DNA of 29,091 bases from an uncultured archaeon. Its GTDB lineage: Archaea > Iainarchaeota > Iainarchaeia > Iainarchaeales > 0-14-0-20-30-16. Below are positions 20,307 through 20,704 of the stretch, piece by piece. The stretch's first letter is position 1. Each line of letters begins with the position of its first letter. The stretch is taken from NCBI GenBank assembly GCA_964480435.1, contig CAYZSS010000010.1:1-29091 (forward strand). Direction: 5' to 3'. Position numbers and translations under genes: made by a program. The notes under the pieces were generated by a model. The model was given only the letters and a program-made list of their open reading frames with translations. It was not told the origin of the DNA and did not search any database.

Positions 20307-20378
20307 AGCTTCTGGCGAGATTTGAACTCACGACCTCGTCCTTACCAAGGACGCGCTCTACCACTGAGCCACAGAAGC
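20307..20378 (-). tRNA. tRNA-Thr (anticodon GGU)
   Basis: Reverse complement is GCTTCTG-TG-GCTC-AGTGGTA-GAGC-G-CGTCC-TTGGTAA-GGACG-AGGTC-GTGAG-TTCAAAT-CTCGC-CAGAAGC-T. Cloverleaf fully paired; no encoded CCA. Confidence 0.92.
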
Positions 20379-20410
20379 ACTGCCTTTTTCCAAAAAGGCA
20401 AGTTGCGAAA
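20379..20410 (-). repeat. Degenerate hairpin motif copy D abutting the tRNA-Thr 5' end
   Basis: Minus-sense TTTCGCAACTTGCCTTTTTGGAAAAAGGCAGT is followed directly by G1 of tRNA-Thr. It shares GCAACTT, a hairpin and CAG with the 34-nt motif at nearly the same distance from the tRNA start as copy A. Confidence 0.65.
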
Positions 20411-20448
20411 AAGGCATATCCCTCTGGGATATCGCGGTGGCTCAGTTG

Positions 20449-20482
20449 TTTTGGGCAACTTACCCTTTTCCTAAAAGGGCAG
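20449..20482 (+). repeat. tRNA-flanking hairpin motif, copy C
   Basis: TTTTGGGCAACTTACCCTTTTCCTAAAAGGGCAG, 34/34 identical to 2550..2583. Confidence 0.9.
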
Positions 20483-20502
20483 CCACTGAGCCACAGAAGC
20501 AC
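20483..20502 (-). pseudogene. Orphan duplicate of tRNA-Thr positions -2 to 18
   Basis: CCACTGAGCCACAGAAGCAC is 20/20 identical to 20361..20380. Similarity continues into the adjacent GCCTTTTT..AAAAAGGC hairpins, about 45 nt in total. Confidence 0.7.
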
Positions 20503-20704
20503 GAGCCTTTTTAGAAAAAAGGCAAAAAGTCAGTTTGCCTAACAAACTGCTTTAGGCCCTCAAACAATTTGCCTAAAGCAAATTGCTTTGTTGGCACCGT
20601 CTGCCAAAAACACGAACCTAAGTTGCCCAAGAAAGGCGTCTCGCAATTTTATTAATATACTATAACGACAAAAAGTTTATATCGTTGTGTGATTTCTATT
20701 ACAT

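Follow-up and report, generated by a model that had tools for sequence, protein, structure and literature searches.

A tRNA-Thr gene of a DPANN archaeon beside a displaced copy of its own 5' end: a possible recombination scar bounded by a DPANN-wide motif

This report concerns a 29,091-nucleotide stretch of DNA from an uncultured archaeon (GenBank contig CAYZSS010000010.1), referred to throughout as the window, and in particular a tRNA-Thr(GGU) gene whose 5' end is present twice with a short insert between the two copies. The window is archaeal, with AT-rich DNA (about 30% GC), and its genes include those for Pus10, ThiI and Memo as well as for a CCA-adding enzyme and a form III-like RuBisCO. 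In a homologue search the nearest relatives of its Pus10 were labelled Iainarchaeum or Diapherotrites, which identifies the window as DNA of a DPANN archaeon (Iainarchaeota-like). Transfer RNA genes were located with ARAGORN and the Rfam covariance model, chance expectations for repeats were taken from shuffled sequence, and copies of a recurrent motif of about 33 nucleotides (nt) were scored with an nhmmer motif profile and a degenerate pattern search. Loci numbered L001-L072 are comparison loci or contigs from other assemblies. The tRNA-Thr locus contains the following features:

20306..20378, minus strand: intact tRNA-Thr(GGU) (ARAGORN; Rfam tRNA model, 70.9 bits)
20361..20380, no strand assigned: first copy of the direct repeat, a plus-strand reading of tRNA-Thr positions 18 to 1 and of 2 upstream nt (exact 20-mer)
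20381..20413, minus strand: motif copy D, left inverted terminus of the insert (nhmmer E=1e-7 at 20382-20412; pattern match with 2 mismatches)
20416..20432, no strand assigned: small perfect hairpin ATATCCC-TCT-GGGATAT inside the insert (read from the sequence; paired in the minimum free energy fold)
20436..20448, plus strand: inverted fragment GGTGGCTCAGTTG (read from the sequence; pairs with the stub around motif C in folds)
20449..20482, plus strand: motif copy C, perfect 34-mer, right inverted terminus (34/34 identical to 2550-2583; nhmmer E ~1e-7)
20483..20502, no strand assigned: second copy of the direct repeat, forming the displaced tRNA-Thr 5' stub (exact 20-mer)
20503..20645, minus strand: putative old long-form leader module of tRNA-Thr (alignment to related modules)

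The duplicated segment, the 20-mer CCACTGAGCCACAGAAGCAC, occurs in exactly two copies (20361-20380 and 20483-20502; 0 expected in shuffles), and beyond it similarity goes on into GCCTTTTT..AAAAAGGC hairpins at 81% over 36 nt. Between the copies lies a 102-nt insert which has no open reading frame (ORF) and whose imperfect terminal inverted repeats, motif copies D and C, are about 76% alike in a hand alignment. Copy D, which has the same sense as tRNA-Thr and lies directly against its position +1, is the gene's present 5' leader. Copy C abuts the internal (D-loop) break of the stub and is the 34-mer TTTTGGGCAACTTACCCTTTTCCTAAAAGGGCAG, found 34/34 identical at 2550-2583, where it is termed copy B (0 expected in shuffles). 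An earlier note on this DNA had described a duplicated tRNA-Thr 5' end with similarity running on into hairpins, a degenerate inverted motif copy abutting the real tRNA end, a copy C identical to a distant copy B, an insert with imperfect inverted termini between direct repeats and a tRNA left intact, and the analysis bears out each of these points. The inverted fragment GGTGGCTCAGTTG, which is identical in the related locus L067, is complementary to tRNA-Thr and stub positions ~8-18 (10 contiguous base pairs plus 1). The fold of the region, with the tRNA included, is stable (z = -5.4), and the hairpin by itself gives z = -1.4. Read on the minus strand, the old leader module consists of hairpin, hairpin, GTTTGAGGG, hairpin, CCAACAAAG and onward, and its span (20503-20645) aligns with window positions 2604-2745, with the new leader of L067 and with the trailers of the L067 tRNA-Phe and the L061 tRNA-Cys. 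TATA-like sequences upstream of tRNA-Thr on the minus strand are present only in the divergent promoter region at ~20650-20690.

Copy B lies in a parallel arrangement at the tRNA-Ser(GCU) gene of the same window, where the duplicated piece comes from the other end of the tRNA:

2379..2411, plus strand: motif copy A, a diverged third copy, forming a leader that abuts the tRNA-Ser(GCU) 5' end (nhmmer E=4e-6)
2412..2494, plus strand: intact tRNA-Ser(GCU), its 3'-most 20 nt (2475-2494) being the counterpart of the Ser stub (ARAGORN, Rfam)
2495..2583, plus strand: 89-nt insert at tRNA-Ser (sequence, nhmmer)
2499-2529: degenerate antisense motif within the insert, serving as the new trailer
2536-2548: inverted fragment GTAGAGGGATTCA within the insert
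2550-2583: perfect motif copy B, the end of the insert
2584..2603, plus strand: stub of the tRNA-Ser 3' end, positions 54-73 (17/20 against 2475-2494, 0 expected)
2604 to ~2745: long-form trailer module after the stub

The architecture is shared with the Thr locus, namely an intact tRNA, an insert ending in a perfect motif and a displaced tRNA end. At both loci a 13-nt inverted copy of a tRNA piece lies directly 5' of the perfect motif (GGTGGCTCAGTTG at Thr, GTAGAGGGATTCA at Ser), so that fragment and stub can pair around the motif. The ~140 nt beyond each stub are also alike and represent a generic tRNA-flank module, which in relatives is found after tRNA-Cys and tRNA-Phe and before tRNA-Thr as well. 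The inserts themselves have only the 34-mer in common, and with the orientation of the shared flank as reference the tRNA piece at Ser runs sense and that at Thr antisense.

Exact repeats of tRNA segments were searched for in DPANN loci, and with the two window loci this gave a series of nine cases, at least seven further scars being present at tRNA genes in other DPANN loci:

Window, tRNA-Thr(GGU): repeat 20 nt, insert 102 nt, 5' end
Window, tRNA-Ser(GCU): repeat 20 nt (3 mismatches), insert 89 nt, 3' end
L067, tRNA-Thr(GGU): repeat 18 nt, insert 192 nt, 5' end
L019, tRNA-Glu: repeat 28 nt, insert 159 nt, 3' end
L025, tRNA-Thr(UGU): repeat 15 nt, insert 65 nt, 5' end
L025, tRNA-Thr(UGU): repeat 31 nt, insert 78 nt, 3' end
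L025, tRNA-Val: repeat 17 nt, insert 80 nt, 3' end
L038, tRNA-Arg: repeat 21 nt, insert 100 nt, 3' end
L043, tRNA-Lys: repeat 15 nt, insert 105 nt, 3' end

Repeats in the series are 15-31 nt long, exact in eight cases and 17/20 at window Ser, and the inserts (65-192 nt) are ORF-less throughout. All nine repeats start in the D-loop or the T-loop, with breaks at 18/19, 53/54 and 58/59. The seven repeats of 15-21 nt end within ~0-3 nt of the mature tRNA terminus, and the 3' repeats of L019 and L025 run 8-14 nt into the trailer motif. Identity directly outside the repeats falls to 0-9 of 15 nt. Repeats that vary in length, run from a loop to the terminus and lose identity this sharply point to identity blocks of the kind found at attachment (att) sites, not to fixed-length target-site duplications. 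In five cases (window Thr, window Ser, L067, L025 Val and L043 Lys) the stub's internal break is fused precisely to the motif end ...GGCAG, which is also the end that lies against natural tRNA 5' ends. At L025 the 5' stub retains a TATA box at ~-30 which the functional tRNA copy lacks, so the insert there sits between promoter and gene.

The motif that recurs at these junctions forms a family across DPANN lineages. Its consensus, TTTTGGCAACTTGCCTTTTT(loop)AAAAGGCAG, is near-invariant except in the loop. A scan with a degenerate core pattern, using one genome per species, returned 31 matches on the DPANN side (labelled Pacearchaeota, Iainarchaeum, Micrarchaeota, Diapherotrites or Woesearchaeota, or unclassified archaea) and 21 elsewhere, nearly all bacterial; the prefix TTTTGGC, which was not in the search pattern, is found in 30 of the 31 DPANN matches and in 0 of the 21 others. 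Variants of the motif alter three arms together (GGC/GCC/GGC, GGGC/GCCC/GGGC or GGGY/ACCC/GGGC), as judged qualitatively. Sense copies abut tRNA 5' ends (Ser and Thr in the window, Phe in L004, tRNA-Met and tRNA-Ile of relatives) and antisense copies abut tRNA 3' ends (L025, L038, L019 and the window Ser trailer), with frequencies of about 8 in 42 sampled 5' flanks and 6 in 43 sampled 3' flanks. The motif is not tRNA-specific, since in L045, an Iainarchaeum metagenome-assembled genome (MAG), an antisense copy (1611-1643) follows 6 nt past the 3' end of a 16S rRNA gene (19-1604). Copies are also found within long tRNA introns at exon boundaries (L013, L040, L047, L065) and between protein genes, often straight after stop codons or between convergent genes. 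There was no Rfam match beyond the tRNAs, the remaining scores lying far below gathering thresholds, and a literature search returned no paper with the motif string in a relevant context and none on DPANN tRNA-flank motifs. Its position at the ends of stable RNAs, its hairpin with T-run and A-run and its terminator-like placement after protein genes suggest that a conserved factor recognises it and that it acts in defining RNA ends, in termination or in recombination. The earlier note had taken the perfect conservation of the 34-mer to imply recent mobility or strong constraint. Near-invariance across DPANN MAGs upholds constraint, and the identity of copies B and C is accordingly explained mainly by it and is not by itself evidence of recent movement.

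Some further features of these flanks were observed alongside. Loci L057 (5956-6071), L063 (1418-1500) and L037 (4157-4235) provide examples of tandem motif copies with repeated spacers (an 85-nt unit in L057) and of pairs of motifs upstream of ordinary protein-gene promoters with no tRNA near; a short stub-like CCACCGAAAG comes after the motif in L063. Many DPANN tRNA genes that are free of the motif have a TATA-like box at ~-30 (for example L043 tRNA-Lys and the 5' flanks of L057, L040 and L019), which would start transcription at or very near the mature tRNA 5' end, a spacing that recalls Nanoarchaeum with its leaderless tRNAs. A second conserved hairpin, hp1 (2351-2376; window form GTATGCTTGAGCGAAGCGAAACATAC), precedes motif A. 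Related forms (..TCGAGCGAAGCGAGA.., CTATCGAGC..GCGAAGATAG) adjoin tRNA genes in other DPANN lineages, with occurrences in the L065 intron, in L066, in the trailers of L025 and L038 and in the tRNA leaders of L013, L020 and L026; the recurring GAGC/GCGAAG core of hp1 is a possible kink-turn or GNRA-type element.

Orthologous tRNA-Thr loci were retrieved through homologues of the neighbouring Whirly-domain protein, and these include both filled and empty sites. L067 is filled, with tRNA-Thr followed by a 192-nt insert that ends in GGTGGCTCAGTTG and the motif, and then by an 18-nt stub. L068 is empty, with flanks ~97% identical to those of L067 (100% from the Whirly promoter onward), and L071 and L072 are empty as well; the tRNA is intact in all of these empty alleles. 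The check for empty orthologous sites in relatives, which the earlier note had proposed, comes out on the side of insertion or deletion. The stub of L067 adjoins a leader homologous to the single leader of L068, in agreement with the claim that the native upstream region had been displaced. Positions 237-311 of L067 and 20436-20510 of the window are 91% identical, their shared core of inverted fragment, motif and stub 91-93%, and the flank modules stand in a different order in the two. Empty-site strain variants of the window itself, also sought at the suggestion of the earlier note, were absent among the nine contigs sharing proteins with it: all nine represent one strain (identity of at least 99.9%) and have the arrangement. 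Several same-strain contigs end exactly at the motif, as is typical of repeat-induced assembly breaks; in independently made short-read assemblies of the strain, the contig ends of L001, L002/L003, L007 and L008 fall at motif C (20453), at the tRNA-Ser 3' repeat (2478) and in the Ser long-form trailer (2671). For tRNA-Ser an empty site was sought via Pus10 homologues, among which the nearest relative is 58% identical and has no tRNA upstream of Pus10.

The anatomy of the locus, its recurrence at other tRNA genes, the filled and empty alleles and the family-wide motif were all observed directly, and we tentatively read the Thr locus as a recombination (integration-type) scar in a DPANN archaeal tRNA gene, an interpretation that we hold to be somewhat short of an even bet. 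It is favoured by repeats and motif copies well above chance expectation, the variable repeats running from loop to terminus, the sharp loss of identity outside them, the exact junctions of motif end and stub in five cases, the filled and empty alleles, the stub beside the old leader, the promoter retained by the L025 5' stub and archaeal precedent, in that tRNA gene fragments flank integrated elements in archaea (PMC3293823; PMC9897764). A small ORF-less cassette, composed of the generic tRNA-flank modules of the lineage and bounded by inverted copies of the DPANN-wide motif, would have been joined into tRNA-Thr(GGU) through the gene's own segment from D-loop to 5' end. The incoming DNA would have carried the tRNA terminal segment together with foreign flank modules (new leader, hairpin, inverted fragment and motif), supplying replacement positions 1-18 and a new leader (motif D) and so leaving the tRNA intact, while the original 5' end would have been stranded as a stub 122 nt upstream, with the old leader module on one side and motif C directly on the other. 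The scar at tRNA-Ser and similar scars at other DPANN tRNA genes would have arisen in the same way. The repeat would be the identity block for recombination, whether by a site-specific recombinase or by homologous recombination with the conserved tRNA as an arm, and probably not a staggered-cut target duplication. Since lineages have nearly identical tRNA sequence, the tRNA might also serve as the arm by which a filled allele spreads through ordinary homologous recombination. At present tRNA-Thr would be transcribed from the divergent promoter region at ~20650-20690, through the old leader, the stub and the cassette, and would be matured just after ...GGCAGU, the stub itself presumably being a non-functional relic. 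Where the earlier note had called the arrangement MITE-like (resembling a miniature inverted-repeat transposable element, MITE) or integration-scar-like, the architecture of direct and inverted repeats stands; the direct repeats, 15-31 nt long and tied to the tRNA terminus, do not have the character of target-site duplications made by a transposase.

Several observations weigh against a scar of this kind. The 29-kb window contains no integrase, transposase or autonomous partner, and the search for such a partner that the earlier note had proposed also found none in viral contigs or in phage or plasmid collections. The viral contigs of IMG/VR gave chance matches only. An attP-like or donor copy was not found in the phage or plasmid collections, a weak negative as DPANN mobile elements are poorly sampled, and no donor copy of the inserts was found in the window or the comparison loci. 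At 65-192 nt the inserts are one to two orders of magnitude below known integrative elements, and the 155-aa ORF adjoining the Thr locus is an uninformative orphan. L067 and L068 differ at ~20 positions across the ~63 nt of leader beside the stub, which means that the alleles are old or were exchanged as blocks and that neither the direction nor the recency of the event can be read from them. Window and L067 agree throughout the 31 nt of inverted fragment and stub (0 changes), with the neighbouring Whirly coding DNA only ~75% identical, a hint that the unit is under constraint or has spread horizontally and is not a relic in decay. Conservation of a core that strains can do without is compatible with several accounts: a unit that is selfish or exchanged horizontally, gene conversion with the tRNA close by, or a function of some kind. 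Finally, the repeats that extend into the trailer motif (L019 and the L025 3' case) fit local duplication as well as they fit integration.

A true MITE would have the motif copies as its terminal inverted repeats (5'-CTGCC...GGCAG-3'), would be non-autonomous, mobilised in trans by a transposase whose gene lies elsewhere, and would insert into tRNA loops, duplicating the target. The inverted termini and flanking direct repeats suit this idea, as do the existence of both filled and empty alleles, the intron motif copies, which abut exons in the orientations that it predicts (L013 has an antisense copy following exon 1, L040 and L047 a sense copy preceding exon 2), and the assembly breaks at the motif, which are those of a dispersed repeat. 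However, repeats of 15, 15, 17, 18, 20, 20, 21, 28 and 31 nt track the tRNA terminus and show no fixed stagger, the inserts have only the motif in common and differ in other content, order and length, their left ends are only generic hairpins, and three cases are without the motif at the internal break of the stub. Searches of the window and the viral contigs yielded neither an autonomous copy nor a transposase, and the motif also occurs where insertion logic is not needed, after 16S rRNA and between convergent genes. We consider a MITE unlikely. It is also improbable, in our estimate, that no mobile element was involved at all and that the palindromic tRNA-flank repeats provoked breaks, template switching and ectopic or unequal recombination, with local duplication and patchwork repair making the stubs, inverted fragments and shuffled modules and selection keeping the working tRNAs. 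The different module order in the window and L067, the existence of tandem and partial motif copies, the inverted copies of adjacent sequence (typical of snap-back repair), the tandem-like extension of the L019 and L025 repeats into the trailer motif, the strong differences in leader hairpins between strains 97% identical and the resemblance of motif B with its 6 upstream nt to motif A of the same tRNA-Ser (85% over 40 nt) would all follow from such a history. It leaves unexplained the precise junction of motif end and tRNA loop in five independent cases and the exact repeats beside unrelated adjacent sequence, and the inverted fragments of the window and L067 share the same two differences from the tRNA, which points to shared descent of a unit and not to fresh templating.

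The arrangement could, alternatively, be functional. Leader motif, 20-nt tRNA piece and trailer would then make up a mini-gene for a small RNA (at Thr one antisense to the 5' end of the tRNA, at Ser a mimic of the tRNA 3' end, encoded upstream of Pus10), or else the hairpin of inverted fragment, motif and stub would be a processing, termination or regulatory structure of the pre-tRNA. The same layout with different sequences at two loci, with a stem that co-varies as a whole, speaks for a function, and the 31 nt unchanged between lineages, the general position of the motif at the ends of stable RNAs and the stable fold of the region, though the fold includes the tRNA, point the same way. Yet the arrangement is dispensable, as L068 and L071/L072 are empty and have an intact tRNA, the hairpin alone is not unusually stable, most other stubs have no inverted fragment, Rfam gives no match, and the two tRNA pieces face opposite ways with respect to the shared flank (sense at Ser, antisense at Thr). 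We rate a functional arrangement as very improbable.

Several other candidates were tried and set aside. A guide RNA with promoter, 20-nt guide and scaffold (as in IscB/TnpB omega RNA or IS110 bridge RNA) does not agree with the genes downstream of the scars, which are Pus10 at the Ser locus and the 155-aa orphan ORF and Whirly at the Thr locus; the supposed scaffold is the generic tRNA trailer or leader module that relatives also carry beside tRNA-Cys, tRNA-Phe and tRNA-Thr, and, as read from the sequence, each downstream ORF has its own TATA-like box ~25-30 nt upstream of the ATG. A 17.9-kb element bounded by the 34-mers B and C was rejected because the interval consists of housekeeping genes (Pus10, ThiI, a DnaG-like Toprim protein, thymidylate kinase, CCA-adding enzyme and RuBisCO) and holds no integrase. 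Functional split or permuted tRNAs were dismissed since both tRNAs are contiguous and stubs spliced to them would give nonsense. The motif is unlikely to be a tRNA promoter, its AT-rich loop being centred at ~-13 and the TATA boxes of protein genes and of other DPANN tRNAs at ~-30. A viral or plasmid origin found no support in viral contigs or in phage or plasmid collections, and the 155-aa ORF gave no sign of being a recombinase: it is an orphan with no family match, and its structure model is unusable, at a pLDDT (predicted local distance difference test) of 33.

Beyond the scars, the motif lies in tRNA introns, for which the relevant loci are:

L013, 5501-5660, minus strand: intron-containing tRNA locus
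L040, 6757-6977: intron-containing tRNA locus
L047, 4935-5145: intron-containing tRNA locus
L026, 3826-4050: intron-containing tRNA locus
L065, 7267-7463: intron-containing tRNA locus

The tRNA-Thr UGU of L013 has two tandem antisense motif copies directly after exon 1 and a clean bulge-helix-bulge (BHB) structure, drawn by hand (H helix UUUG:CAAA); L040 and L047 have a sense copy before exon 2. A simple BHB scan found convincing motifs in the DPANN introns of L055, L035, L059 and L026. As side observations, the introns at these DPANN tRNA loci are unusually long (70-150 nt) and contain one or two motif copies, and two ARAGORN predictions of tRNA-Ser(tga), both apparently mis-typed, read otherwise: that in L025 (2185-2330) as tRNA-Thr(UGU) with a canonical intron, and that in L065 (7267-7463) as tRNA-Leu(UAA) with an A73 discriminator, with hp1 and the motif in its intron.

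An extension of the recombination-scar reading, which we regard as decidedly unlikely, is that the cassettes are DPANN-specific non-autonomous elements homing to tRNA loops, that the scars are the first stage in the gain of introns or split halves and that the motif is the recognition site. Each cassette may include a short stretch complementary to the tRNA arm that it targets, the D-arm of tRNA-Thr in the case of GGTGGCTCAGTTG and the T-arm of tRNA-Ser in that of GTAGAGGGATTCA, and loss of the redundant gene end may then lead to motif-bearing BHB introns or to adjacent split halves; as a corollary, the motif may be the site for a protein or ribonucleoprotein that defines stable-RNA ends in reduced archaea. 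That scars evolve into introns is something we only infer. If this extension were true, the pathway would be a directly observable mechanism of tRNA intron gain. The origin of interrupted archaeal tRNA genes (with introns, split or permuted) is a long-standing question for which few intermediate stages have been seen. Here one motif marks leaders, trailers, long introns and miniature scars, and one locus has filled and empty alleles in nature; if scars and introns are stages of one process, DPANN metagenomes would allow it to be tracked allele by allele. A ~33-nt motif at tRNA and 16S ends across DPANN phyla implies, moreover, an unrecognised factor in termination, RNA-end definition or recombination. 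On the practical side, the motif fragments short-read assemblies and DPANN MAGs at tRNA loci, and stubs can mislead tRNA annotation.

The window is densely populated with tRNA-related genes (2838-5735, 13516-16383 and 27958-28962), which surround three tRNA genes. The set comprises Pus10, ThiI, several S-adenosylmethionine methyltransferases and the CCA-adding enzyme, together with a QueC-like ATP-binding (PP-loop-type) protein and a tRNA-Thr_ED editing-domain protein. Two tandem paralogous ORFs (7656-8333 and 8510-9190, within 7601-9190), neither with a Pfam match, have 3' ends 83% identical over 70 nt and upstream regions 78% identical over 58 nt. The 155-aa orphan ORF (20705-21172) lies between the tRNA-Thr locus and the Whirly gene, and L067 and L068 lack it at the orthologous position. 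A search of 1.8 billion representative proteins gave only four remote, unannotated relatives of it; it has no Pfam or NCBIfam match, and no H-x-H motif was seen in its sequence.

In relation to known systems, the closest parallels include att-type duplications of tRNA genes. PYG1 at tRNA-Gln of Pyrococcus yayanosii has flanking 44-bp repeats (PMC9897764), and in Caldiarchaeum subterraneum a tRNA-Thr(GGU) 5' fragment is found with a 1.8-kb recombinase-encoding insertion (PMC3293823). The window locus is alike in that the repeat runs from the tRNA interior to its end, the tRNA is restored and the site is strain-polymorphic, and it shares with Caldiarchaeum both the tRNA species and the 5' position of the fragment. 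It has one complete and one partial tRNA copy, with an identity block from loop to gene end. It differs from integrative elements in that the insert is 102 nt (65-192 nt in the series) against 1.8-23 kb and is without a recombinase gene, in that it consists of host-type tRNA-flank modules and a DPANN-shared motif, and in that the repeats are only 15-31 nt; neither a recombinase gene nor kb-sized DNA lies between the repeats, and no matching attP was found in the viral, phage or plasmid collections. With prokaryotic MITEs (PMC10969869) it has in common small size, absence of an ORF, inverted termini, direct repeats, intergenic location and dispersal in both orientations. However, the direct repeats vary in length and are tied to tRNA termini where a fixed short target-site duplication would be expected, the copies share only the ~33-nt motif, no parent insertion sequence is known, and the motif is conserved across phyla rather than within one genome.

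Models exist for intron gain via mobile elements, and BHB introns and split tRNAs are known in archaea (PMC4090602, PMC3218864, PMC3293823); the non-canonical intron positions reviewed for archaea include 53/54, 56/57 and 59/60, with 18/19 and 58/59 unlisted. Disrupted tRNA genes resemble the scars in that the same motif occurs in leaders, trailers and long BHB introns near exon boundaries (L013, L040, L047, L065). In contrast to BHB introns and split tRNAs, the scarred tRNA is uninterrupted, its stub is redundant and splicing is not needed. Bacterial repetitive extragenic palindromic (REP) sequences and bacterial interspersed mosaic elements (BIME), including REPINs, are imperfect palindromes of ~30-35 nt that are dispersed intergenically, often in inverted pairs and often at gene 3' ends. 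The motif is likewise an imperfect palindrome of similar size, dispersed, present in inverted pairs and found at gene 3' ends, but it is archaeal and abuts the ends of stable RNAs. A RAYT-like gene was not seen: the 155-aa ORF beside the Thr locus has neither an HUH motif nor a family match. Overall, the locus resembles an att-type duplication in how it works and a MITE in appearance, and it departs from each in a defining feature.

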